Positions 1,541 through 42,679 of a stretch of DNA of 64,000 nucleotides are shown here, piece by piece (position 1 is the first letter of the stretch; every line of letters begins with the position of its first letter). The notes under the pieces are model-generated. The model saw nothing but the letters and a program-made list of their open reading frames with translations, was not told the DNA's origin and did not search any database. The stretch is taken from assembly GCA_022813865.1 (NCBI GenBank), contig JALDZX010000001.1, positions 682,001-746,000 on the forward strand. Reading direction: 5' to 3'. The DNA is from Xylographa opegraphella (Eukaryota). A program made the translations under genes and the position numbers.

Positions 1541-3713
1541 TCAACGGTCTTCGGTGCTTTGCTCTTGCACAGCGTCATAGAAAGCGTCAACCGCAAACAG
1601 TTCCATAATCTGGGGATCTCCTGACTGTAATGCCAGGTCCGTCATTGTATGACCTTGGCTGTTCTTGAGGTCAGTACTCGCGCCAGCTCGCAGCAATTCC
1701 CGGAGCACGTCATAGGAGTGAGTGATTATGGAATGGGCCGTTGCGGAATCCCCGCCCACGTTCACGAGATCTAGTGCGGCGCCTTCCGATATCAAATGCG
1801 CGGTCGATCTCCAGTGGTTTCTCCTCGCAGCGTACATTAGTGGAGTGTCGCCGTCATCGTCGATCGTGTTTATCTCATGCGTTGTGGCCATGATAGCATC
1901 GAGAAGCTGAACGTTGTCCTGGTTCTTGCAAGCAATGTGTAAAGCCGTGCCGCCAAAAGCGTCTCGCAGATCCGTCCTGGCACCATGAGACAACATGAGC
2001 TCAACAGACGGTATGTCTCCGTTTTTGATGGCGTGGTAAAGCGGTGGGCGCCGCTCAGAATCAGCCAAATTCGGATCTGCCCCATGGTCAAGTAGTGTCT
2101 GTGTGGTCAAATAATCTCGGCGAGCGACTGCCCATGAGAGAGGAGTTCTCTTGTTTGCGTCCACGGCATTCAAAGCTGAAGTGGTGCTCTCTAGCTCGGA
2201 GATCACTGTTCGACTTATTATGTTTAGCGTGGCCTTGTGCAAAGTTGTAAATTGACGAGATTCCATATAGTCGTCGTCCGCAAACATCTCGCTCACCTCC
2301 CTGATCTGCGCTGGTACCAATTCTTTCGACAATACGAGATTCCAAGCACTATCAGAGGGTGTGCTAATCAATCAATCATGGGTCCGACGTGGTAATGGAC
2401 CGACTCACACTTTATTTTCATCCGCCAGCGTTGGCAGAGCACCCTGCTCGATTAAGAACTTACATACTTCGAAATGACGGTATGCTATCGCATACTATGG
2501 ATGGTCAGCTCGGCGCCTAGGTATTATGATTGAACTCACATGCAAAGCCGATTGTCCGTAGGCGTTGACGTCAAAGGGAGAGGCTTCGCGATCGAAAAAC
2601 AATTTCTGAATAACATCCAGCCGTCCGGTGCGGGCCATACGCCATATTGGCGAAGACCAAGCAACCATTCGAGGCATCCGGAGAGTACCCTCAATTCCTA
2701 CAGCAGAGGACATACTCATCGAGATGGCCAGTGCTCGTGCCAGAAACCAGCTAGGGAAATGATAATCGAGTCGGATAGTGGGAGAAGCCCGATTCCGACA
2801 ACCTCTCTCGTTGCACGCGGGAGTCAGAACAGGAAGACCGGAATATCCCACAAACAGTGCACCAAAGACATGCCTGACAAGAGCTGGGGTGCGAACGGCG
2901 CGCTTCACGTGGCATACGCAACTGCACCATGCATTGCATGCATTGCAGCTTCTCTTGTTGACCACAGTACAAGTTCGTACCACGATAGTCCGATGATCAG
3001 CATAATCCAGCGCGTCAATTGATGTGGCGGGCTCGCCATGAGCACGTACATCGAGACGTGCGAGGGAACTATCAGGGAATATTCGATGCGGGATTGGCGG
3101 CTGATGGTCATCCAAATCGAATATTGTTCCTTGGGGGACGGCAGATGGTTCACGCGCGAGTATTGAGGCAAGCTGAGCTGACAGTGCCTGCTGGTCACAG
3201 AAAATTCTTTGGACGGTAAGCTCGACGCGTGAAACGGATGAGCTGTTTCTATTCGTGAATGGTCTGCATAGAGGAAAAGGTGCTGCGAACTTACGAGGTG
3301 ACCATGCCCAAGCTGGTTGCCAGATTCCAGCGTATACTCTTCAGCTCGGATTGCAGGCGCAGGACGACGTGTTTCTCCCTTAGCCAGGCAAGTCGAACAG
3401 CTTTGACGCTGCCATCGGCGCCTAGCAGCCGATATGCGATCAGCTCTTGCAGCTCCAAGATCTTGTCTTTTGCCCTTTGCACATGACTGGCCAAGGCCTT
3501 CTTTGGGCCTAGATGTTGATCGTTGTGGTCTTCTTCCTGTGAGATGTGCGCTATGGTCGTCAGTATCGCCTGGAGGTCGGTGATCTCATTGATCAATGCT
3601 GATAGCTCGTCCTTTGACTGTAGCATTGCTCTGATCTTGGCGATGGCCGTGACCGTCTTTCCAACCAGTCCGATGACTGCGATGAGACTGGCAGTGAAAG
3701 CCAAGGGATCCAT
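1541..3713 (-). CDS. HeLo-like N-terminal domain + Cys/His-rich segment + ankyrin-repeat protein (about 676 aa)
   Basis: Exons 3713-3295, 3242-2540, 2494-2409 and 2363-1541 have GT-AG introns and total 2031 nt in frame. N-terminus MDPLAFTASLIAVIGLV resembles Helo_like_N. CNACNAWCSCVCH motif. Ankyrin motifs QSALH, TTLHKA, TPLSWA, PPLYHA, TALHIA, TPLMYA. Confidence 0.82.
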
Positions 3714-4058
3714 GCTGACCAGTGCTGCCCAACAGCAATATTTTGTGCAACAGGACGTGTGAAGGAGCGTTCGATTTCACGAGGCTGAACATCTCGAAGG
3801 TGTCCAGCTTTGCCTGGCGTGAGCGATGACTTCATTGCGCAGGAATCAGGCAAAAGAACGCCCCGTTTGTTAGTCGTCGTTACAGACTGTTGATGAGCGG
3901 TTGGGCTGAAGCGCATGTGGATATGGACCATCAAGTACTCCGTACAAGAAGAATATAGTATATATATATGTGTGTAACCCGGGACAATCGTAGACAACCC
4001 AGCTCCCGTGATTTAACAACTATTTGACTGTACTGCAGTACGCAACTGCGCCGTGGCC
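3714..4058. promoter_or_regulatory. Putative bidirectional promoter with a TA-repeat tract
   Basis: 345 bp between two divergent ATGs, with TATAGTATATATATATGTGTGT at about 3954-3975. Confidence 0.45.
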
Positions 4059-6914
4059 ATGGCGATGCAAGCTTTCAATGGTTTCAGCAACAAATTCCTC
4101 GCAAACATCGACGTTGATGCTGTCGTGGTGGTATTGCTGGTGTTGGCGGAGTGGGTAGTCTCTACCGCGCTTGCGATGATCTGCTTCTGGAATGAATGGA
4201 TGGCCGCTGCGGAGCGTCGGAAGAGATACACAGCCATAGCAGCAGGTTTGACGGTCGGGCTGGGTAGGTGAGTCGACCCTGGTCCTGGTTCTTCCTAATC
4301 ACTTGTGTCCTATTTATTGTAGACATTGAGTAGTCCATCCACAGGCTGCCCTAGCCGATGCTAACGGTGGTTCTCCAGAACGGCATTCGTCGTCATTCTT
4401 ATCTTGACAGTGCAACAACGGCAACGAGAGCAAGGTGATGAAACCACCACACACGCTGCGATTGACGGGGCGTACGCATTGCACATCTTTTCGAGCGCGC
4501 AGTGTTTTTTACTGCTGGCACAGGCATTGCTCTGCGTGCAGAGAAAGGTTCGTTGGCCGAGTCTGGTGAAACCTGGACCGGCCGGCAAACGTTCCGATGC
4601 GAAGCCAGCATGCACATCCAATGACCTTCCACACGATCCTCCCCTTGTGGTGATTATTCCCAGCTACCACGAAGATTCATGGGTTCTTGAACGTACGCTC
4701 AATGCGCTTGTTGCCAACAACTATTCGCGGTCGAAGCTGTGCATCTATTTGTCTTTTGATGGACTCGATCAGATCGAGGAAATCGACAGTGTCAAGAATT
4801 TCCTCGGCCTCAGCCATGTCGTTGAGAATGGTGCAGACGGAGAATCTTGCTATGAGACAGAATTTCAAGGCTACCGCGTCGTTTTCTCTGTCTTTCGTCA
4901 CGGCGGAAAAAGGCAGTGTCAGAAGTCCACTTTCGAGCAGATCAAACGCCGTGAAGAGATTGCCTTCCTCCGCCAATCATGTATACTTCTACTGGATTCC
5001 GACACTTTCCTACAACATGATTGCATTCGCAACTTTCTGCTGACAATGGGAGAACAAGTCCCCTTAGAACCTGGATATCATGCATTGTCCGGCATCACCA
5101 GAGTATTCAGGTTCCACCAGTCGTGGCTTGGCCTTTTCCAAAAGCTCGAATACTTTTACAGTCAGCACTTCGAACGCGAAGCAGAAGCTACGTGTGGTGC
5201 TGTCCATTGCCTTCCCGGAGGTCTCACTATGCTCACCTACATGATGCTGGAAAATTGCGCCGACGAGTATTTCAAGGACGTTGTCCAAGCCCATGATGCG
5301 TGCTTCGACTACATGAAAAGGTCCTTGGGTGAAGACCGCTGGCTTACCCAACTGGCCATCAAGAGACCACGTGCTCGAGGCGGCATTGGACTATCGAGAA
5401 GAGCTTTTTGTGAAACCGTAGCCCCTACGACTATCATGAGCTTTCTCGCACAAAGGCGCCGATGGTTTCTCGGCTGCATAGCAAACGAGGTATCTGGAAT
5501 GTCTGACCCTGACGCGTGGGCATTCTACCCTATACTCTCTCTTTACCGCATCGCACACTATGCTATTGGTACTCCCGGCTTCCCGTTCATTCTAACGAAA
5601 TTCAATCTGCTGCGACAAACACCATACTACCGGATCAACCTCACGCTATGGGTGGCTGCTATCGCGCTGACCTGGACTACTCTGATCGCTATCGCTGGAC
5701 GTGAGGACCTGTACAGTGCAATTTCGTATCCGGTTTTCCTTGTGCTAAATCCATTGCAATTGACAGTCGCCTGGATATATGCTGTTTTGACCATGGGCCA
5801 CCGCACCTGGGGCGCGAGGACTGTACCACAGGTGTCCAAGTTGCCGGCAGGAGTTCCGAATCACGGCGACCGGACGGTGAAACGCTTGCCCATCCTCTCA
5901 GATGCCGTCTCTCTGGTCGCAGAGATGCAAGATTACCTGGGACGCTGCCATTCCAGCTGCGCCTCACGGGTGCTGCGAGTCTTGGGCGTGGGTTCGCAAG
6001 TGGGCGAGATCACTTGTGTGCTGTCGGACGGCATCGTGGTTGCGCGCAAGCGCTCGCCGTCGCCCACCTCCACCGCCGGGCGCGCGATCCTTCAGGAGAT
6101 CAGGATCCTGTCGCGCCTGAGCCATATCCACGTCATCTCCATGCTCAAGGCGCAGGAGTCGGGTCCGAGCACGGAAATCTTGCTGTGGCCGGTGGCGCCT
6201 TGCGATCTGATGGTCTTCCTCCCCAAGATCCACGACGCCGACCGCGGCGGACCCCTCGACCACGAGCTCTGGCAGGCTCTCGGCCTCCTCCGCCCGCATC
6301 GCCAGCGCTCCTCCCTCGACAACGCTCGGCAGTGGCTCCGGAGATCCATAGGCTGCCTCTGCAGCGGCGTCGCTTACATCCACAGCCAAGGCATCCGCCA
6401 CCACGACATCCGCACCCAAAACATCCTCGTCACGCCGCGCGGGCCCGTCCTCGCCGACTTCGGCGGCGCCGTCGTCCTCGCTACGGCGCAGACGCAGACG
6501 CAGAACCCCCCCTCTACCACCCAGCCGTTCGACAGCGCCTTCGCCTCCGACGTCCTCCTCCTCGGCTGCGTCGTCCTCGAACTCGCCTCCGCCATCCTCG
6601 GCATCGACCCGCGCGCCCACGCCGCCTTCGACGTCATGACCGACCTCCGCCAGACGTACGAGTGGAATTTCGTCCACAACGGCGCGCGCCGCGCTCGGTG
6701 GGTGGCCGCCATGCGTCGGTGCTCGCACGACGCGCTGGGTGGTGGTGGTGGTGGTGGGGGCGGGCTGCTCGATCTCGCGCAGGCCATGCTGGCGGACGAT
6801 CAGGCTCGTCGACCGTCGGCCGCGCAAGTTGTGCGAGCGCTTGGCGGCTTGGCTGCCGCGGGCGAGGTGCTGTGTGGCGCGTGTTGCGCTGCGGGGACGG
6901 GAGGGGGGGTGTGA
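4059..6914 (+). CDS. Divergent ChsD-type (class VI/division 3) chitin synthase fused to a C-terminal protein-kinase-like domain (about 914 aa)
   Basis: Exon 4059-4267, intron 4268-4378 (GTGAGT..CTAAC..CAG), exon 4379-6914 with no stop. GT2 motifs: LSFDG, HGGKR, DSDT, CGAVHCLPG, LGEDRWLT, QRRRWFLG, RTWG. Kinase motifs follow: LGVGSQVG, VARK, QEIRIL, HHDIRTQNIL, ADFG, SDV, RPSA. Confidence 0.85.
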
Positions 6915-7330: not shown

Positions 7331-7363
7331 ATCTAGCATCTAGCATCTAGCATCTAGCATCTA
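7331..7363. repeat. 7-bp tandem repeat (TAGCATC)n
   Basis: atctagcatctagcatctagcatctagcatcta, about 4.5 copies. Confidence 0.9.
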
Positions 7364-8243: not shown

Positions 8244-8273
8244 NNNNNNNNNNNNNNNNNNNNNNNNNNNNNN
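8244..8273. other. Assembly gap (30 N)
   Basis: Run of N. Confidence 0.99.
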
Positions 8274-8377: not shown

Positions 8378-9502
8378 TCAACCGTCCTCATCCCCCTCTG
8401 CCTCCTCCTCGTCATCCTCCTCGCCCGTCTCCTCCGCGCTCTCACTCCTTCTCTTCTTCGCCACCGGCTCACCCCCACCGCCCATACTCTTCCGCTTCTT
8501 CCCGTTCCCCGCCCCACCCTTCATCTTCCCGTTCTCGCCCTTCTCGCCCATATTTTCCTTATCCTCGCCGCCCATCTCGCCGTCCATGGCGGCGACCTCG
8601 TCGGCGGTGAGGAAGCGGCCGCCCGGCCCGCGCGGACGGCGCATGGCGTGTTTGTGCCTGCTCTCGTGGAGGTATGGTTTCCGCCCTTTGCTCGTGAGTC
8701 GCAGGGCCTCTTCCAGCTTCTGTCGCGCGACGCGCCGTTTGAGGATCCGGTGGAATTGTTTCGCGTTGACGTAGAGCGGAGACTCCTCGACGGCGCCAGG
8801 GGCGGGGATGGGATCGGGTGAGGGAGGGTGTTGCTGTTGGGGCGGTGGCGGCGGCGGTTGGGCGTGCTGGTGCTGCGGCATTTGCGAGGGCGGGGCCATG
8901 GATTGCGGGGGCACCGATGCTCGATGCGGCTGCTGCTGGTGGTGGTTCATCATGACGGGCTGGGCGCTATTCATGTGAGGACTGCCGACGCCGACGTGTT
9001 GAGACATGCGTCTCTGTGGGGGCATGGGGTGACCCTGTTGGACCTGCGAGGGAAGGGGCGGCATCTGATTCCCCAGCTGCGGCGGGCTCCGCGGCGTTCG
9101 CTCGGGCTTGATCGCGTTGACGTGCGCCATGTGCGGCGACGAGCGCGCGAGACTGTCAGCTATCGACGTCGATGGCATGTGGTAGCCGTAGGCCGGGCCG
9201 GCGGCAGCTGCGGTCGCCATGGCCGCCGCTTGTCCCGGTGTGATCCCATACTGTTGTGGCATATTGGGCGGCACACCATAGGCCTGGCTGTAGATCTGTT
9301 GATGTGGTTGCGGCGGTGGTGGTTGCGGTTGATATTGCGAGCCCTGGGATGGCAGGATGGGCGATGCCTGGTGGTTCGGATGTTGTTGATGGATATGCGA
9401 GGCATGATGGTTGGGAGGAGATGTCATAGGTGGGCCGGCGGACGTCTGTTGTGGTTGGTAGTGTGGGTGAGACCCGTGAGGATATTGCGCGTAGTCCATC
9501 AT
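8378..9502 (-). CDS. hapB: CCAAT-binding complex subunit HapB/Hap2 (NF-YA)
   Basis: NF-YA core [18 protein letters not shown]...[26 protein letters not shown], Gln/Pro-rich N-terminus, first ATG at 9502. Confidence 0.95.
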
Positions 9503-12500
9503 ATGTAGGTCGGTTGCCCCGGCGGGCCTGGCGGTTGCGGTGATGCGACTTGGAGGCACCGACGGTCGGTCTGGCGTGTATTGCTATCTCGTCGAGGTAG
9601 GTAGCAGGAGCCTACCAGCTTCCAGCGCCGCGAAGTCCGTGACCTTGATGTTTATTGGTGATTGCGCCGTCCAGTGAAAGCGTAGTGCTTTGCGGCGGGG
9701 ATTGTCGAGCATGAGATTGGCTGCCGGGAACGCGCAAATCTGCAGCCCTGTCAATCCACCGGTACGTACTCGATCAAAGATATCTTGGACCGCACCTCCG
9801 ACCGCAGTTGTTCTTGTCAAGGTGTGTCCTTGATCTTCTCACGACGACGATGGTGATGAAGAGGGCGGACGCTTGTGGTTTTGTCGCCTCTGTCGAGGGA
9901 CTAGATACTTCGGGCAAGGCGGAATTGGGCCTCTCTGCAGCGCGGTGGATAGGCGTCACCCGGGTATGCGCTGTCAATTGGGACCGTTGCAACGGCCGGA
10001 AGGAGCCTCAATTGCGGGTTCCTATAACGCCGGAAGTTGTCAGCGGGCGTGGTCCCAACGTCGACGGTTCTGATCGATATTCATACCCAAGTTTAGATTC
10101 CTTGTCTCGTTCCCGCTGAAGGTGAGGCTGTGCGTTTGGTCGAAATGCTCGAAAGCCGGTGGAGGATAGCGTGCGCAGGCCAATGGCGGAGGCAAAAATG
10201 TTCGAGGCTGTCAATTCGTTCTAAGTAGACTGGGAGGCCACCAGTCAGCAGCGGACCAGGTGCTAAATGCGCGGTGAGGCGATAACTGCGAGTCGTGCGC
10301 TGGCACTGCAGGAGTAGTGTGGACAGGGTTGCGCGTACCCTTCTCACGACGACCGGGCAGCGTCCTTCTCGATCGTCTGAACCTCGGTCGAGTGACGTCC
10401 ACAGTGGTGGCAGCTTTGCACACGAGTTGGGGTTGGTCTGTTGATGTACCCTCCGTACGATTGTGGAAAAAAATAAATAATATGGGCGCGTCGGTGGGGG
10501 TATGGGATCTTGCTTTTGTACAAGCGCGGTCGGGTGCGCCGAATGTAAGCTGTGCAGCAAAAGGAATTATGCGACAGCAGCCGTCAGCACGGCGGTGACG
10601 ACGGCGGTGCAGTGTCGAGCGCCAGGCGCTGCTGCTCTGCTTGATCGATATCGAGGCTTCACACTGCGTATGTCAGGTCAGTGATGGGTAATGGCGTCAT
10701 TCATTGCCGTCGCGTCCAACAGCGTGCTCGTGGATCACGATGTGTACCTGGTAGCCGCAACAGAGACAAGTCGTCCAGATTTGGCCGAATGAGAGACTCG
10801 AGCCAGGGCGCAGCTTCGGTTGACTAACCTAATATGCCGGCCACGACACAGGAACGCTCCTCACTGGTTGACGTCGCGATTGAGTCCGTCGTAGGATTTG
10901 GGACGGTGACGGTCACCTGATGATGAGTGGGATGGCCGACAAGCTGCTTGATTGTTGGCTATGGTTTTTTGGGGATTCGCAACGAGGGCCACGGTGGGCT
11001 TTACGGCGATAGGTTCTTTCTCGAGCTGCACTGGAGATCACCCGAAGGTAGCTTTGTAGATTGGGGGGGGAGGGGAAGGGGGGGGGGGTTGTTCGGATCG
11101 TGAAGTGAGGAATCTGATTCGCGAAAGGCGAGTAGGAAGAGTGATTGGAGTGGAGAGCGAGCCAGTGAAGAGAGAAAGAATTCGGGGGGAGTGGGTGGAA
11201 GAGAAGCGTTGCAACTTTTGTGTCAAACAACAGCTACGCTCGGTAGGCTCGTGACTAGCGCCGCACGATTCCGTTGGAACGGCTTGTCGGTGCTGGGATC
11301 AACGTGCAGCTTGGAGCGGGAGAATGGGGAGGACGTTGTTCGACCAATGGAGAGGAGGGAGAGGGTGACAGGCACAAAAGGCAGCCACTTTGAGTCATGA
11401 TCATTACAGTTGAGCTACGAAGTACGGCTGGTTCTTTGCTTTTTCCGTGGCGCCAGGGGGCGGGAAGGAGAGGTGGGGTGGAAGAAAGGTGGCGATGTCA
11501 ACAAGGGCGGTGAGGAGCAGGCGGCAGTGGATGAAGTTCCAACAAGTGTCCAGAGTGGTCAAGCCAGAAGTCGGGACACGCCTCGCACCGATGTCCGTAC
11601 AGTACTCCGTACATGTGTGACACAAGAGAGCGAGCGCCTACCACGATCTCCTTCGTGATGAATGATGATATTAATCTTAAATCTTGTTGATGAAGGATGT
11701 GATGAGATTGAGAATCGAAAAGCGAGCCGCGCACACACACACTCACACCCACACTCGCATTCACGGAACTGTTCGATGCCGATCCGACGGCCCGTCCGAA
11801 GGAAGAACTCGAAACACGTGATGATGATTAATCCTCGCAAAATGGGCGATGGCGCGCGCATTTCTGTGATTCGCGCCCTCGATCGGATTATTTAAAATTG
11901 GTCGATTTGATTTGAATTACTTACTAATACGGGAGTAAGGTAATATTGTTTCGTGGCCTTTCTTCCCCCCCGGCCCCCAGTGACCCCCACCGCTTCTTCC
12001 CCCCCCGAAACCATTGCCGCCCGCCCCAATGATAAAGCCGCGAGCCGGAAACACCCCTACTCCACCACTTCCGAATCCGACTTTCCCCCCCCCCTCCCGG
12101 TCCACCGGCTCTTTCACCGCCCCCCAGCTTCCGCAGCGTGGGCCCTGCTGGCTTTTCGGCTCTGGAGGGGGCAGGAGGGAAACGGGCGCTGATCGCTTCA
12201 ACCAAGCGGACGGGCATCGATGCGGTCATGCAGAACTCGCCAACCTTGCGACAGCGCTTCCGGCTGCGGGTCATCCGTTAGCGGCTGCCAACTCGAGACC
12301 TGCCATGTCGGAGGTGGGTGTGTGTGGTGTGGGTGGTAGGGAGTGGGTGTGGATGCTGCCTCGACACCCAAAGAGCAGGAACGAGAATGGTCAAACACGA
12401 CGCGCCCCCACGTCGTCTGCAGAATATACGCGACAGGAGCGAAAGTAAGAGGGAGGGGGAGGGGTCTGGAGACTGTAGACAGACGTCGGGGAGAGAGGAT

Positions 12501-13188: not shown

Positions 13189-15037
13189 CTACTCGTCCTC
13201 TTCCACGCCCTCCGGGATGACCTCGCCCTCCTCCTCGCCCTCCTCGAACGTGTCCGCCGGCACCTGGTAGAGCCGGAGCAGCGGCTTGTTCGGGTCCTTC
13301 ACCAGCACGTACTTGCCCTCCGCCATCTTCAGGCACATGTCCACTATCGTCCGCACGATGCCCCAGCCGTTGGCGAGGTTGAGGTTCATCTGTTCCGCAA
13401 ACTTCCGCGGGTCGTACCCGACCACGCCGAGGATGACGTGCCGCTCGTTCGACTTCGGCGTCGCCCGGGACACGAATCTGAAAGGCCGCCGCCGTTAGCA
13501 AGCGGGCCGCAACCTCCGTCGCAACCGGAGGAGCCTTACCCGAGTTTCATCACGTCCGCTTTGGCGAGGATGCTTTGGACCGTCCACCGCGCCAGCTTGC
13601 AACTGTTATTCTTCATCTCCGTAGCCACCACCGCGCCGCGTTGACTCGTCAGCTTCGTCCTCCAGTCGAGTGCGCCTCCGCTGCCTTGCGCCTTGTGGTC
13701 GAACTCGTTGAGCGCTTTCAGCGTGAGGAACTGGTCTTCGCCACTGATGTTGTTCTTCACCACCGCATCCAGCTCGGTGCGTACAATCAGGTGCAGTGGG
13801 TCCTCATCCTTTTCAAGCGAGAGATCGAAGCGTCGGTATTTGTAAGCTTTCGAGGCTAGGGGTTCTGTCTCTTCGCTCGGATTGTAGAATGGGTTCTCGT
13901 GACTCATCTCGTACTTTGAAGTCTCCGATTCTATCACCGTCTGGTTGGCGAAGTTGTGATTGATGAATGTTGCTTCCAGAGCCAGTGCGGTGGGGAAGTT
14001 GATCGTCTCCTTGTTACCTTCTGACGCTTCCAAAGGTGAATCGGCCGCATTTTCATTCACGCTGACCATGTCGAGCGAAGAACTGTCTCGTTTGTCCAAG
14101 TATATCTTATTGCCATGGCGGGTAATAACAATGTCCCATGAATAAACAGACCTCGGAGCACACATGAGCATGGAGAGAATGTTGTCCGTCGCGAATATTG
14201 TAGCCTCATCCTTCTCAGCGAGCTCTTGGATGATTGGGTCGGAGGAGGTAGTGACATTGTAGGCAATTCGGTCAACGACGTTAAGTTTCCTCTCGGTATT
14301 CTTAACTGGCGGTTTGTCGTATGAGCGGTCGTAGTAGTATAGGAAGCCATAGGTATCGATGTCTTCTCCTGCACTTGTCTCGAGATTCAGTTTTGCCAAG
14401 CGGTTGAAGTCAATTTCCTCTAGCATCTGCCAGTCTGGCTTGATATTCACGGACGAGTCCCGGTTGCGCTGCGGCTTGTCGTAGTCCTTCCACCCAAACC
14501 TCCGACCTCGTCCCCCTCCTCGGCCCCCTCGGTTATCGTAATATCCGTTCTGCTGACCGCCACGACCACCCACACGTTGGAACGTGCCTCTTCCACCGCG
14601 TTGATCACGACCACCTCTTCCACGGCCACGGAATATGGTGCCTCCACCACGACCAAAGCCCCGGGTCTTGGTCGACGTTCTGGTATTGTCAACTACCGAG
14701 AAGGACGACTCGTCTTCTGCAACCTGGACGGCGAAAAGACTGGACGTTCCGGCACCGTATACCTGTTGATCTAAAAGCGGCTGGTAAGTCTTACGGGTTG
14801 AATGTATCAACGGGCATCGTTACCTCTGTAGTTTCGATTATACTGTTGTCGACCCCCTCGCCCATCTCGGCCATCTTTTCCTTCAGAGGTCCAATCTGCC
14901 ATTCGCCCCAACTTGTCTCCCTTCGAGTACGCAGCATATGGAACGCCATCGACAAGGGTATCCGTTGTCGTAGTAGGACCCCACGACTCGTCTGAGGGGA
15001 GAGCAGATACTACATCTGCCAATGATATTGGTGCCAT
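13189..15037 (-). CDS. eIF3d: Translation initiation factor eIF3 subunit D
   Basis: [59 protein letters not shown]. Introns at about 14772-14824 and 13479-13539. Confidence 0.95.
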
Positions 15038-20125: not shown

Positions 20126-23100
20126 ATGGTCGACCAGGACGAACCTGCTGGCCAGTTTCTTGCTCCGCCGATTCTAGCTGCCATTCGCTCCGATGAGATC
20201 AAGGCACGCGTGCAGATGGAGAGGACGGTGAGCCAGGACATCCGCGAGGAGCGTGCAGATCTCAAAGAGGCGGCGGAGCAGTCCTTGAACGTCATACTCG
20301 ACCTCAGTCTTGATGGAATAGTTCGTTGGGTCAGTCCTTCGTGGCAGGATGTTGTGGGTACGACGACCGATTCAATCCGGGGCAAGCCAATTGCAGCCCT
20401 CATAGTCGACGGCAACGAAATTAGCCCATTCTATGAAGCGGTTGAGTCAATGAAGAAAGATGACTCGAGAAGCCATATCGTTCGTTTCAGGGTTCGGCTT
20501 GGACCACTTTCGGTGCTTGCCCAGAATTCTGTTGATCTTGCTGTTCAAGGAGAGGCCGAGGGCTTTCGTCAAGATGAATCGGAAGAGCTGCAGGAGGAAA
20601 GAACTATAAATCTAGAGGGTCAGGGTATCATGGTATACGATCGATCATCGGGTGGCGAGAGCCATGTAAGTCTACGTGTCCTGCTCGGCAAACCCCTCAC
20701 GCGTTGCTGACCAGTAAAAGACCATGTGGATGATTCGACCCTCCAGTGGTCCTAGAGAAATTACCATTGATCTTCCGGAACTCCTTGTCGAGTCCCTCGG
20801 TTTCGGAGCGGAAGTGCTTGCCGCCTATTTAACAGCACTTGCGGATGTCTCTACAGATGGTCCCGCCAATCATCCTCCGCCTCTTCCAATTCTGTGCCGC
20901 ATATGTGAACGCCAGATTCCTCCCTGGTGGTTCGAGAGGCACTCTGATTTATGTTTACAAGAACACAGAGCTGAAATGGAAGTACAGCTGGCTCACGAGG
21001 CCTTGACCGATCATCGGAACGCTATCGTCAAGGTCTTAGATGCCTTGGAGGCACGGAAAGGACGGCCAACGAGCAACGATCTATCGCCCTCTCCACAATT
21101 GCCTGCAGAATACAAGGGCCTCCCTATTGGCCCGACGTCAAGCCCCTCCCCCAGCGCTTCTGGAAGGGCCTCTCCGGCAACGCCACCCCACTCCAGGGAA
21201 CATTCCAAAACAGGGCTCGGTCACGCTCGTGCCAAGTCTTTTGCCGTAAGGCGACCGCTCTCACGGATTGTTGAGCTGATACTTGATCTCTGTGATACAG
21301 CCATAGAGATCAAGACCCCAATTCTCAGTGAGACGAACCAGAATGCGCTTGGCGAGTTCAGGACGCAGTCACCAGGATCCGAATCTCGCATCTCACAGGT
21401 CCTGGGCTGGCAGACACCAAGCACTAATACTCTAGAGAATGAGCAAGGTCTTGCCGCCTTGAGCGCGGACACAGAGTCACTTGCCAGAGCCAAAGTAGAT
21501 GCTACACTTAGGCATCGCCGAATTATTGAGTACTCGGAGCGCATTCGTATCGAATTCCACGTGCTTGTCCAGACTTGCATTGACGCTGCTTTGCAAAAGG
21601 CAGCTAGCATTCGGGAAGATGGCTTGAGCAGCTCCTCGGAAGGCGAAGATGATGCTGAAACACCGGCGCCGCAAACCACTACGTTCTTTTCTGAATCCTA
21701 CGATGGTTCCTCGGCAATGGCCTCGGCGCTGCGGAATGCCTCTGACCCGTCACTTGCATCGCAGGTAGACAGAAGGCAGTCGATTGCCATTTCCACAGGA
21801 TCAAATAGTCCTCTAGAATGTCCAACGCCACGGTCACATCACTTTGCGGTTGGGGTACTGGGCGGGAGTCGTTCCACCAAAAAGCGTAATTCTATATATG
21901 GAGGCGGCAGCGACGCAGGAGACAGCGATGGCAGCCTTGCTTCATCTATATTCTCTGGAGGTCTGAGGACAGAGTCGCCGGGATCGTCAGAACACGCTCT
22001 GGGCCGTTCAATGAGCTCTCGGGAACGAAAGCGCAGGAGCCTGAAGCTGCCTGGCGTTCCGTCGCCACGACGAGGCCAATCACCCGCCAGAATCATTCCA
22101 CCATCTTCGCCACTCAGACTCTCGAAACCGCGAATTACCAGTGGCACCGAAGCTATTCCCACCCCAATCCATTCGCCCCTGCTGACAAACAATGATCTGA
22201 TTTCGCCAACTGCTTCAACACACGGACACCGCAGGCAATCATCAGTAACTTCATCTGCAGATCTGACCAGGGCTCCTGTCTCACCGAGGCTATCGGCAAT
22301 GAGTCAACCCCAGCAACGAGCTGTACCTCCTTCTATAAAAGATTTTGAGATTATAAAACCTATTAGCAAAGGAGCCTTTGGGAGTGTCTACCTGTCGAAG
22401 AAGAAATCGACCGGTGACTACTTTGCAATCAAGGTACTTAAGAAATCTGATATGGTTGCCAAGAACCAAGTCACAAACGTCAAAGCTGAAAGAGCTATTA
22501 TGATGTGGCAAGGCGAGAGTGACTTTGTTGCGAAGCTATACTGGACCTTTTCAAGTAAGGACTATTTGTATCTCGTCATGGAGTATCTCAATGGTGGTGA
22601 CTGCGCATCATTGGTAAAGGTCCTGGGTGGCTTGCCAGAAGATTGGGCCAAGAAGTACCTTGCGGAAGTTGTGCTTGGGGTGCAGCATCTCCATAGCCGC
22701 GGTATTGTGCATCGAGATCTGAAGCCTGATAATCTTCTCATCGACCAAAAAGGGCATTTGAAACTGACAGACTTTGGCCTGTCACGAATGGGCTTGATCG
22801 GGCGCCAAAAACGACTTTTGAGGAGCCCGCACGACTCTGTTCCAGACTTGCTAAAGCATGGCCCTTTCGCACGGCCGCCGTCGATGACTTCTTCGCGATC
22901 TGCGTCTTTCGATTTCCAAGGCACCCATTCACCATCCTGCACGCCTGTCATGACCCCGGACTTGGCAGGCCAACTTGGTCAACCATCCTATTTCAGTCTG
23001 AATCGAGACACGATCCTTAGCCGGGATCAATCCCGACGAGCCTCTGGTTACCGCAGTGACAGCGGTAGTAGCGACACATTCAACAACATGTTCAAAGCGT

Positions 23101-25865
23101 TCTCCTTGAACGATGAACAGCCACAAAGAGGGGCACCTATAGAAGAAGAAACAAATCTGGAAGATAGAGAATCTCCAGATCCATACTTCTTGCAACCCAG
23201 TCTCAGTCATTCTAGCGTCGGCCAACATAATACTCCACCCCAGTCTGGCATGTTACCTCCACCGATGGCTTTGTTCGATCCCGAAGATCATAATCGACGA
23301 TTTGTTGGAACGCCTGATTATCTTGCACCTGAAACTATCAATGGTCATGGCCAAGATGAGATGAGTGATTGGTGGTCCCTGGGATGTATTCTCTTCGAGT
23401 TCTTGTTCGGTTATCCACCCTTTCACGCAGACACACCTGAAAAGGTTTTTGAAAACATACTCGCAAGAAGAATTGATTGGCCCGCTGAGGAGGAATGCTT
23501 AGTGTCGGACGAAGCCAAGCATCTAATGTCGAGACTGATGACGATCAACCCAAAGGAACGGCTAGGATCCAACCTCGGTGAAGAATTCGCCAACGGCGGC
23601 GATGAGATCCGCAGGCATCCCTGGTTTGATAGCATCAATTGGGAAACTTTGCTGGAAGACGAGGCTCAATTCGTTCCCGCCCCTGAGAACCCAGAAGACA
23701 CAGAGTACTTCGATACGCGAGGTGCGACGTTGCAGGCTTTTGCGGAAGAACTCGAGGATCAAGCCACTTCTCCTGCCCCAACACCCGGAGCAGATTATCC
23801 CGAAAGGCCACATGACGCTTTGTCTCGAATCAGGACTCAGGTGAATTCGATGAAGCGTGGCTTGATGCCTTTACACATTCCAGCTCATGTTCGTGATCTG
23901 AGAAGCAGGAGACTCAGCGAACCAGTGGCTACTGATGACTTTGGTAGCTTCACGTTCAAGAATCTTCCTGTACTTGAAAAGGCCAATAAGGATGTCATCC
24001 AGAAGCTGCGTGCTGAAGCTCTACATAGCCAATCTAAATCAACCGTAGGGCAGATCAATTCTGGCAATAATTCCCCAGCACCGTCGCTTGAAGGTAGTCC
24101 ATTGCTACCGTCTCCATTGAAACGGACACTTTCTGTGCAAAAAGGCGTCAATCGACCAGCGTCGCCGTCAAATCTCAGTCTCACAAATTCGTCGCCAAGC
24201 AGGGCCTCACAACCAACATCGCCTCTTCTAGTCTCGTTCTCTACGGGTCCCCATCATGAACGAAGGAAAACATCAAGTACTTCTTCAACCTTATCACACC
24301 AATCCAGTGCTTCTTTGCAGCCTGGAAGCTTCTTTGATCTTCAAAGACTTCCAATAGGTTTCTTGGCAAACTCAACCGCTTCTTCGCCGATTAAATCTGC
24401 CAGAACGCCCAATGTTATGCAGATTGCATCGCCGGAAAAGGGGCTGACACCGCAAAGAGTGCCCAGTCTTCCTACATCGCGCGCAAGATCGCAGACTGTT
24501 GGATCGCAGGAAGGTGATGTTCCTACGGTCAAACCATTTACTCATCACAAACGAAGAAGTCAGGTATTCGACGTCTCTCCGTCATCGTCGGATAACGAAG
24601 ATCCTCGTGCCAAGGCACTCCTGCGAGTGCAACGTCGCAGGCAAAGCTCCCGAAGAATGTCACAGCTACCTGGTGCGGATGGGCCCTGTTTCCGTCCGCT
24701 TGATGTGTTGATATGTGAAGATCATCCTGTCTCGCGGCTGGTCATGGAAAGGCTGTTGGAGAAGCTGCGTTGTCGGACCATCACCGTTGTCAATGGCCCT
24801 GAAGCTGTCAGATTTGCCACAAGCGAGGTACAGTTTGATATCATCATGATGGAGGTGAAGCTACCCCAATTGAACGGGGCGGATGTCGCTCGGATGATCA
24901 GAGGCACCAAGAACAGTAATCAGCAGACACCAATCATTGCAGTGACGGGCTATCTTAAAGAATTACCGCAAAACCACCACTTCAATTCACTGATCGAAAA
25001 GCCACCAACTTTAGAAAAACTTACGGAAGCGTTATCCAGTTTATGCCAGTGGAAACCTCCTCCGCCTGATTTTCAACCGGAAATGATGCATCATACACCA
25101 TCCAGTTTGCGCCAAGAGTCCTACCCCTCCGAAGACAGTCCCAATTCTCAGTCCTCCGGACCCTTCGCTCGAATGCCTGGCGTCTCATATCGTGCCTCAA
25201 GTCGCGAAGACTCGATTGGTTCCAGTAGTTTTTATGGTGATGTGGAGTTAACTCAATCTGATGGAGGGCCGGTAATCATCAGCCAGCAAGGGGACGAATG
25301 GTCTGGCAACGGCCTGGGAATCACAGACGAATCACATGATCCAAAGCAATTCATTCATCCCGGTCTGCCGCATCTACTGCATTACAACTCAGCGCCTCCT
25401 GCCCTGGAGTTGTCCTCTCCACGACGACAGCGCTCGTCAGAAGCCATCATGGCTAAGCGAGAAAGCCTCGAGAAGAAAAGACACGAGTGCGCGGAGTCCG
25501 GGGACGATGAAGACGAGGAACTGGGGGATACCTCCATACAACCGAAAAGTCCCAGAAGCAAATACCGCGGATCGAAATTGGGGACCGAGATGCTGAGGAC
25601 GAATAGTCGCGGAAGCGTTATTTCCGCTTCAGAAGAGAATACAAGTCAAGATGCTCGATCTTTACCGCCTCCTTACCTCGCAGATAACACGTCGAGCCAC
25701 GCGCACCATGCCTCCATTACCCCACCGTTGATATTTCCGAAAGAAGTTGGGGAGACGGTCAAAGTCATCGACATGGATGCTACGCCTCGGCCGTCGGGCA
25801 CTACTGGGTCGAGAATGGACGGCAAATCGCCGGAAGCGCCTCTCTCCCCGACACTTCACAAATAG
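20126..25865 (+). CDS. RIM15: Rim15-type Ser/Thr kinase (PAS, zinc finger, split AGC kinase domain, receiver domain)
   Basis: PAS-like WVSPSWQDVVG, CRICE...HSDLCLQEH, ISKGAFGSV, HRDLKPDN, DFG..long insert..GTPDYLAPE, receiver LICEDHP. Intron 20666-20720. Confidence 0.95.
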
Positions 25866-41677: not shown

Positions 41678-42679
41678 NNNNNNNNNNNNNNNNNNNNNNN
41701 NNNNNNNNNNNNNNNNNNNNNNNNNNNCCCCCCCCCCTCTCCCCATAACTCGGAACCTTGATGGTGTGAACTCCCAACCGCTGACCCACTCCGCCTCTCT
41801 CGCTCAACAGTCTACACATGCCAGAAGCCCCAACCCTCGCGCTGCGGCTTCTTCCTCTGGGCCGACGAGGCCCGCCACCGCGAAGCGGGCGCCGTCCTGC
41901 TGAACGCGCGCTCCGAAGCCGTGGCGAGAGGCACCGCGAGCGTCCAGCCGGTAGTGCCGTACACGCCTTCAAAACCGCCCCGCACGAACATGGCGCCCGT
42001 GCCTGCGACGGGATCGCCGCCGGAGGAGTTCTACGACTGGCCGGCTAGCGACGACGACGACGACGATAAGAACAACAAGATCTCGCCTTCCCCGTCTGAC
42101 AAGCGCGTGCCGCCCCAGTCGTCGCCATCGCCAGCGCCGCGCAAAGCGCTCAAGACGGACGCGTTCAGCACGCCGACGAAGCGCTCGCACGGCGAGATGG
42201 CGTTCCCGACGCCGTCCACAACTGGGAAAGCCGTACCCACCACCTCCGGCGCCACCTTCGCCGCCGCCGCCGACGACGTCTTCACAACCCCCACCACCGC
42301 CCCGCTCGGACGCACCCTCTTCTCCACCGCCACCACCACCACCCTCCCCTCCCCCGCCACGACACCCACGCCGCAGCGCTTCCGCGCCCCGCCGGAGGCG
42401 GGCCCCTCCTCGCTCGAAGCAGAGATCCTGGACGCGCTGGGGGAGAGCGCCGTCGGGGCGGACGGGCGTGCGAAGCTGAGGGCCGTGTGCAAGCGGTGGG
42501 AGATGCACCTCCGTGGCGTGGAGAGGGGGAGGGAGGTGGTGCGCATGGCGGTGAGGGCGAAGGAGGCGCGCATCGCGGAGCTGGTGGGCAGGTTGGAGGG
42601 CTTGGAGAGGGAGAGGGAGGCCGGGAGGGCGCTGGTGAGGAGTTTGAGAGGTGGAGGAGGAGGGGAGGAAGGGGGGTGA
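41399..42679 (+). CDS. GRF zinc-finger protein with a disordered middle and C-terminal coiled coil
   Basis: WQCNC...H...NHGRW/FYTC...CGFFLW joined across intron 41574-41810 (GTGAGT..CTGAC..CAG). The intron spans a gap. Confidence 0.82.
41617..41737. repeat. Poly-C tract interrupted by a 50-N gap (41678-41727)
   Basis: 61 C, 50 N, 10 C. Confidence 0.9.

Follow-up and report, generated by a model that had tools for sequence, protein, structure and literature searches.

Can a fungal polysaccharide synthase carry its own protein kinase in one polypeptide? The question is raised by a gene at positions 4059-6914, plus strand, of a 64,000-nucleotide stretch of contig JALDZX010000001.1 from the lichen-forming fungus Xylographa opegraphella (the window, in whose numbering all positions are given), where an earlier note, made from the letters of the DNA, had described a chitin synthase running in a single reading frame into a protein-kinase fold. 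The classification of chitin synthases relies in part on accessory domains, which are the myosin motor, the cytochrome b5-like domain and DEK-C. Class VI is the single class defined by the absence of an accessory domain, and its product and role are the least understood; a conserved enzyme derived from this class and provided with a cytosolic kinase would enlarge the set of accessory domains by one. On the analysis reported here the fusion is very probably real, and the gene is, to judge from its sequence, a real and intact fungal gene for a polytopic membrane protein of 914 residues. As an explanation of the whole, we lean towards a class VI-derived synthase with a cytosolic, ATP-using kinase that would act in cis.

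A scan for open reading frames (ORFs) gave a frame of 849 codons without stops on the plus strand at 4365-6914. Since exon 2 contains no in-frame methionine upstream of the glycosyltransferase family 2 (GT2) core, an upstream exon is needed, and in the spliced model (4059-4267 joined to 4379-6914) a predicted exon 1 of 69 codons and two bases, which starts with the ATG at 4059 and encodes, at residues ~23-41, a hydrophobic helix near the N-terminus, is followed by a predicted intron of 111 nt (4268-4378) that keeps the phase and has a donor GTGAGT at 4268, a branch site GCTAAC at 4359-4364 and an acceptor CAG at 4376-4378. The resulting coding sequence of 2745 nt has a single stop at its end (TGA, 6912-6914), so that the 914-residue gene model first proposed stands. 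It is the splice signals that argue for exon 1, as phmmer gave no match for it among the 386 proteins compared, more than 100 of them class VI; the LAEW string of its helix, which had been taken for a ChsD-type feature, occurs in none of the 386, and that part of the earlier description is not supported.

Exon 2 (4379-6914) encodes membrane helices, the GT2 core, a linker and the kinase. The GT2 catalytic core (4632-5474; exon-2 residues 85-365), predicted to be cytosolic by homology, carries the motifs LSFDG, HGGKRQCQK, DSD (at 4995, within DSDT), QKLEY..QHFER, CGAVHCLPGG, GEDR (5328) and QRRRW (5451). It is followed by the post-catalytic interface and transmembrane helices (5475-5822), which end in TWGAR at 5805-5819 and were assigned from hydropathy and from the alignment to the helices of the Chlorella-virus hyaluronan synthase through its WGTR motif; over the full-length protein, hydropathy places helices at residues ~23-41, 60-78, 105-123, 491-509 and 522-540. 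The linker (5823-5981; exon-2 residues 482-534) is predicted to be disordered apart from one helix immediately ahead of the kinase. Within the protein-kinase domain (5982-6839) are found the G-loop at 5982, the VARK lysine at 6048-6050, HHDIRTQN at 6399-6422, DFG at 6456-6464, a shortened activation segment (6465-6548) and the RPSA arginine, and the C-terminal tail (6840-6911) holds a conserved (L/C)xGxCC motif. The motif positions in the earlier note, from DSDT and TWG (5805) to the G-loop and DFG, are all correct.

Against Pfam, the exon-2 product matched Chitin_synth_2 over residues 198-374 with 74.4 bits (cut-off 27). Its match to Pkinase, over residues 532-819 and profile positions 4-259 of 263, scored 55.8 bits against a cut-off of 31.7, and the general GT2 models Glyco_trans_2_3 (52.5 bits) and Glyco_tranf_2_3 (43.8 bits) also matched. 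Both domains claimed for the frame are hence recognised above their cut-offs. The 3' half of the gene is about 69% GC and two further frames are open there for 374 and 446 codons, so the open frame on its own is weak evidence; taken with the Pfam matches and the conserved homologues, it is more than chance.

Homologues of the same architecture were detected in a word-indexed search of 5.8 billion proteins (8000 candidates, E <= 0.001), which returned five proteins. One is the product of the window itself; the remaining four, P0002-P0005, have 857, 852, 829 and 801 aa and are 72, 55, 51 and 51% identical to it at a query coverage of 95-100%. All five members of the family hold the GT2 and kinase Pfam families together and align from end to end, with the frame unbroken through the linker. 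Identity to the four homologues is 81, 63, 56 and 55% in the GT2 core and 68, 57, 56 and 55% in the kinase, and this parallel divergence of the two halves indicates that the join is older than the split of the family members. The linker is 25-70% identical (25-36% in the distant members), with S507, D508, L512, V513 and E515 invariant. A nine-glycine insertion in the C-lobe of the kinase (6738-6764) belongs to this genome only, as it does not occur in P0002-P0005 or in P0006, one of two additional fragments. P0006 (316 aa, 546 bits) is the kinase part and begins inside the G-loop with no methionine, which marks it as a truncated record; P0015 (259 aa) is a GT2 end running on into the linker. 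Both are best read as partial members of the fused clade and not as split forms.

The layout is rare. When 1.84 billion representatives clustered at 50% identity were searched exhaustively with an HMMER profile, 7025 matches were obtained at E <= 1e-3, and among the best 150 of these only the window's own cluster spans both halves. When JGI metagenomes were scanned with the family alignment, no fused gene was found among the best 80 of 148 relatives; these are 32-37% identical, their matches end by query residue ~526, and they are ordinary class VI-type genes. Searching the linker and kinase part by tblastn against the 80 loci, with up to 6 kb of flank, gave no match, and an origin of the fusion from a conserved synthase-kinase gene neighbourhood is unsupported, there being no kinase-like sequence in those flanks. 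The ESM Atlas returned only kinase clusters from Ascomycota and Basidiomycota, at 0.77-0.78, which have no more than the value of leads.

The full-text literature, in a corpus with few subscription journals and no supplements, yielded no kinase-fused class of chitin synthase, and papers that name both Pfam families do so in unrelated passages. The word kinase occurs 0 times in the available text of a classification of chitin synthases (PMC5122149), and a kinase was not found among the accessory domains in the available text of the chitin synthase classification papers or of an Aspergillus review. The fusion is a rare layout that is absent from the chitin-synthase literature searched, in keeping with the earlier note, to which no such class was known.

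A compositional step accompanies the domain boundary. The GC content at third codon positions (GC3) is 0.54 in the GT2 half (4380-5822) and 0.85 in the kinase half (5900-6914), with peaks of 0.97, and the neighbouring ORFs tested have values of 0.46-0.73, all below the kinase half. Gly, Ala, Arg and Pro together make up 0.35 of the window's kinase and 0.24-0.27 of the kinases of the four homologues; for the GT2 halves the fraction is similar in all, at 0.23-0.25. Since the GC-rich amino-acid composition is limited to the kinase half as found in this genome, the shift is lineage-specific and later than the fusion. As its cause we would guess at GC-biased gene conversion or else a mutational bias of local extent.

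The affinity of the synthase half to ChsD-type (class VI) enzymes, first suggested from motifs, is corroborated by its nearest named relatives and by the tree. A GT2 profile built from the window's GT2 part and 15 of its best non-fused relatives gave 119 matches at E <= 1e-20, of which five carry kinase Pfams, all of them in the fused clade. Named matches, at 33-38% identity, include 'chitin synthase D' of Aspergillus, Metarhizium, Cordyceps and Lasiodiplodia, 'Chitin synthase VI', 'class VII chitin synthase' (a label from an older numbering) and 'family 2 glycosyltransferase'. None of the 21 GT2 relatives scanned with Pfam has a kinase domain, and the C-terminal tail of class VI, at the place where the kinase sits in the fused gene, is non-conserved and without a Pfam domain, which agrees with the view that the kinase stands in place of the usual tail. 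Other fusions were seen in distant GT2 relatives: P0038 (863 aa) has a polysaccharide deacetylase at its N-terminus, and P0034 (910 aa) has RbsD/FucU at its C-terminus. As the profile also matched canonical class VI proteins in the lichen-forming genera Caloplaca, Gyalolechia, Letrouitia, Lobaria and Agyrium, the fused gene is plausibly an extra paralogue beside a canonical class VI gene.

In a careful maximum-likelihood tree of 48 GT2 cores (412 columns), class VI and the fused clade come together at 98/98; the fused clade itself is supported at 100/100, and its stem measures 2.10 changes per site as compared to 0.02-0.3 for branches within class VI. With this grouping on so long a stem, the description of the gene as fast-evolving is right, and the GT2 half is most likely a very fast-evolving sister or descendant of class VI (ChsD/'recCHS'). 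The GT2 half keeps every one of the 60 columns that do not vary in an alignment of 16 class VI-type and fused sequences, among them HGGKR, DSD, GEDR, QRRRW and WG. The series D, D, D, Q(R/Q)xRW, which is the criterion used in the available text of PMC5122149, is present in the window protein along with EDR and (S/T)WG. The window protein has QKLEY and, eight residues on, QHFER, comparable to QDMEY..QLFER in the five named class VI proteins checked; the tandem is present in four of the five fused members and may correspond to the 'duplication' of published class VI descriptions.

By sequence, the best solved relative of the GT2 half is the Chlorella-virus hyaluronan synthase (E 3.4e-7, residues 89-480, 16% identity), and the same protein comes first by fold in Foldseek (E 1.5e-14, template modelling (TM) score 0.57-0.61 on the target), followed by Xenopus HAS1 and then by yeast, Candida and Phytophthora chitin synthases (Chs1/Chs2; S. 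cerevisiae Chs1, E 2.3e-13). The AlphaFold2 model, computed from a 74-row alignment (mean predicted local distance difference test (pLDDT) 82, predicted TM score 0.62), consists of two confident domains, with pLDDT mostly 85-97 in the GT2 core and 81-96 in the kinase, and a low-confidence linker (pLDDT < 50 over 478-528).

The best relatives of the kinase half form a family of free fungal kinases (P0112-P0154; 110-130 bits against the family profile) in which the kinase occurs alone or with varied partners. Among the 13 that were scanned, three have other partner domains (HeLo/DUF7580, ankyrin repeats or C2H2 fingers), as many as five match the kinase domain a second time, and none has GT2 joined to the kinase. 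Fused kinases and nine aligned free relatives have the signatures LLWPVAxCDL, GCL and a terminal FGxCC in common, and the kinase half appears to be a recruit from this fungal family with its many different partner domains. Ten positions (K557, E573, H674, H675, D676, N681, D693, F694, G695 and R811) are invariant in all five fused members; kept are the beta3 lysine (VARK), the alphaC glutamate, the HxD aspartate, the asparagine, DFG, the subdomain-IX aspartate and the subdomain-XI arginine. The HKD of the free relatives is HHD in all six sequences of the fused family. In the tail motif, G833, C835 and C836 are invariant (5/5), and FGxCC closes the kinase domain in eight of the nine aligned free relatives (P0112 has SHC); lipidation or metal binding at this (F/H)GxCC end is possible. 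Foldseek matched the kinase fold to a plant receptor-like kinase, IRAK4 and CDKL1 (E ~4e-9, TM score 0.60-0.65 on the targets).

How might the two halves work together? In solved hyaluronan synthases WG(T/A)R is situated at the cytosolic face of the membrane, and by homology to these and to solved chitin synthases the GT core, TWGAR, linker and kinase would all be cytosolic. The N-terminal two-thirds of the protein would be a processive GT2 polysaccharide synthase in which the class VI tail has been replaced by a kinase domain, tethered by a flexible linker of ~50 residues directly past the last membrane helix and TWGAR, so that it would share the cytosolic side with the sugar-nucleotide active site. 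The kinase domain retains every residue required for ATP binding and phosphate transfer and is without the peptide-binding P+1/APE segment. Because the former are kept and the latter lost, regulation in cis is the likeliest role and a general signalling kinase is less likely; the kinase could be an ATP-dependent module that regulates, in cis, the synthase itself or proteins kept next to it, acting by autophosphorylation of the linker or cytosolic loops or by nucleotide-dependent gating. This assignment of the kinase we put forward tentatively, with about an even chance at best. The earlier note had further supposed a coupling of glycan synthesis to signalling, which may be so, and with the P+1/APE segment lost, signalling through protein substrates is less certain than it assumed. 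Control of chitin synthases by kinases and signalling pathways is well established, and phosphoregulation is known for the enzymes of yeast and Candida. The cell-wall-integrity pathway controls chitin synthase gene expression, according to the available text of PMC9865612.

Several points weigh against the reading of a class VI-derived synthase regulated in cis by its kinase. That the gene is expressed, spliced and read over its full frame is a prediction from DNA, and the homologues may be plain ORF calls, in which case what is conserved is an open frame and not an mRNA. As to descent, the tree bears out the grouping with class VI, beside or inside which the fused clade may lie: class VI is monophyletic without the fused clade in 30% of 200 bootstrap trees; in a quick tree of 94 rows, which carries a long-branch warning, the fused clade joins two other long rows within a starred set that includes class VI. 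Contact between kinase and synthase is a postulate of the proposed mechanism. In the kinase itself the catalytic-loop lysine is arginine in all six fused-family sequences (HHD[IL]RT[QE]N), the GTxxYxAPE segment of the nine aligned free relatives (9/9) is seen in none of the six (0/6), where the segment is 10-13 residues shorter, and the G-loop has a one-residue insertion (LGVGSQVG in the window). As to the product, 'chitin' may be the wrong name for it: the chitin synthase activity of class VI is unproven in the available text of PMC5122149, and that of PMC9865612 describes an A. fumigatus chsD deletant with normal chitin synthase activity.

The losses in the kinase lead to what may be the main alternative to cis regulation, namely a pseudokinase that would serve as an ATP-binding or structural scaffold for partner tethering, localisation or oligomeric state and would not transfer phosphate. 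Kinases without the APE/P+1 segment tend to be atypical (ATPase-like, not directed at peptides) or pseudokinases, and the shorter activation segment, the arginine in the catalytic loop and the inserted G-loop residue all fit such a protein, as does a Pkinase score of 55.8 bits when the 13 free relatives reach 105-243 bits. However, the beta3 lysine, alphaC glutamate, HxD aspartate, asparagine and DFG are invariant among members only 51-55% identical, which is unusual for dead kinases, and D-x-R-x-x-N, the form of the loop seen here, is that of the active Src-type tyrosine kinases. We regard a pseudokinase as unlikely, though it deserves to be taken seriously.

The doubts about the product lead to another reading, in which the membrane half is no longer, or never was, a chitin synthase and instead makes some other beta-linked polymer or oligosaccharide (hyaluronan-like, mixed, or short GlcNAc chains), or acts mainly as a membrane sensor or anchor for the kinase, so as to form a receptor-like kinase with substrate or polymer occupancy as the input. 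The hyaluronan synthase as best solved match by both sequence and fold, the very long stem of the fused clade and the kinase fold nearest to receptor-like kinase and IRAK4 structures would suit this, and so would the hyaluronan-synthase-like N-terminal part and unproven activity of class VI (PMC5122149, available text). On the other hand, LGEDRWLT, QRRRW and TWG are of chitin-synthase form and Chitin_synth_2 is the best GT2 Pfam model; all the invariant catalytic columns are kept, arguing against a dead enzyme, and the deacetylase fused to the distant relative P0038 is in keeping with GlcNAc polymers in the wider group. To us this reading is improbable. The readings of cis regulation, of a pseudokinase and of another product or a sensor overlap, and our estimates for them are not shares of one total. 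The enzymatic activity of both halves is presumed from the motifs that are kept. A more speculative possibility, to which we give only a small chance, is a kinase-gated polysaccharide synthase or a fungal receptor-like kinase in which a synthase-translocon is the membrane module of an IRAK/receptor-like-kinase-type domain that has shed its peptide-binding segment, such that ATP would gate synthesis or occupancy would be reported to the cell.

The weakest alternative, very improbable in our estimate, is that the long frame represents two genes or an annotation artefact, with a synthase that ends in the linker, or is spliced out there, ahead of a kinase gene of its own, or a contig chimera at the GC step near 5900: the jump in GC3 exactly at the domain boundary, the long open frames that DNA of 70% GC yields by chance and the kinase-only record P0006 would all agree with it, but the frame runs uninterrupted across the junction in four further assemblies at 51-72% identity, linker residues are conserved with no frame-breaking indels at linker identities down to 25%, P0006 is truncated and P0015 crosses from the GT2 end into the linker, no methionine lies near the start of the kinase part, and the GC-rich residue bias, being limited to the kinase half as found in this genome, points to later local drift and not to a foreign join. 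The same layout in the four homologues rules out an assembly chimera at the GC step.

The surroundings of the fused gene were also annotated. Upstream and divergent from it, on the minus strand at 1544-3776, lies a gene for a protein that weakly resembles PigL_N at its N-terminus (21.9 bits, where the cut-off is 27.2) and then has ankyrin repeats; ankyrin and HeLo domains also accompany free relatives of the fused kinase. Downstream, NF-YA (8381-9583) and eIF3 subunit D (13539-14819) are both on the minus strand, and a 1715-codon open frame on the plus strand (20718-25865) encodes a split Pkinase domain with a response-regulator receiver, a layout that we take to be that of Rim15-type kinases. 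The second kinase match of the window (22644-22778) belongs to this gene and is unrelated to the fusion. The eIF3 subunit D product is 100% identical to a protein named from one Xylographa species and 98% identical to that of a second, and nearly all of its next-best named matches come from other lichen-forming Lecanoromycetes, which shows the window to be that of a lichen-forming fungus. The heptamer ATCTAGC is repeated four times in tandem in the intergenic DNA downstream of the fused gene (7331-7358), and runs of N at 8244-8273 (30 bases) and 41678-41727 (50 bases) are gaps or masked stretches.

If the preferred reading of a synthase regulated in cis is correct, the fusion offers a natural way into the question of how these enzymes are turned on and off, as it names the kind of regulator that acts on them. 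It would also exemplify a membrane-anchored kinase in fungi, which to our knowledge lack receptor kinases. Given its lichen-forming source, the fused gene may point to lineage-specific biology of the cell wall or matrix; it is possible that only lichen-forming Lecanoromycetes have this design, the lineage being known for the window's own gene only. Should the kinase be dead or irrelevant, the finding shrinks to a rare lineage-specific domain fusion.

Compared with known systems, the kinase half is closest to the free fungal kinases (LLWPVAxCDL, HKDxKPxN, DFG, GTxxYxAPE, FGxCC), which unlike it keep the APE/P+1 segment and the catalytic-loop lysine. For the membrane half, the match to the hyaluronan synthases of Chlorella virus and vertebrates (PDB 7sp7, 8sne, 8smn) spans the GT core, the membrane helices and WG(T/A)R, but these proteins are 16% identical and have no C-terminal kinase, and the motifs of the fused protein are of chitin-synthase type. 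Among chitin synthases, class V/VII with its myosin motor and class IV with its cytochrome b5-like and DEK-C domains likewise join a catalytic and membrane module to a cytosolic accessory domain for delivery or activity; they differ in the accessory domains themselves, in the N-terminal position of the myosin motor and in GT2 cores of division 2. P0081 and P0101, which were taken without a Pfam scan to be of this division 2 kind, fall in the opposite half of the 48-core tree.

In design, the fused protein may also be likened to bacterial BcsA, a processive GT2 synthase-translocon whose C-terminal PilZ domain, cytosolic and nucleotide-binding, lies past the last membrane helix and gates the active site. 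This is an analogy of design only, since BcsA is bacterial and the PilZ fold and its c-di-GMP ligand are unrelated to a kinase.

The nearest known system is class VI itself (division 3, 'recCHS'; A. fumigatus ChsD, Afu1g12600, and A. nidulans ChsG), with which the fused clade groups at 98/98. In the available text of the sources, class VI is described by a hyaluronan-synthase-like N-terminal part and by its occurrence once per genome as a well-conserved gene (Goncalves et al. 2016, PMC5122149), and class VI/division III by the lack of any accessory domain, with CS2 (Chitin_synth_2) only (PMC4734345, PMC9865612). Class VI and the fused protein have in common LSFDG, HGGKRxCQK, DSD, QxxEY..QxFER, CGxVxCLPG, LGEDRWLT, QRRRW and (R)TWG, and both begin with membrane helices and have a GT2 core, similar to hyaluronan synthase, that is of Chitin_synth_2 only. 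The fused protein departs from the strong conservation that characterises the class, being 33-38% identical to its members and placed on a very long stem, and from the description of a synthase without accessory domain, as it bears a Pkinase domain at its C-terminus.

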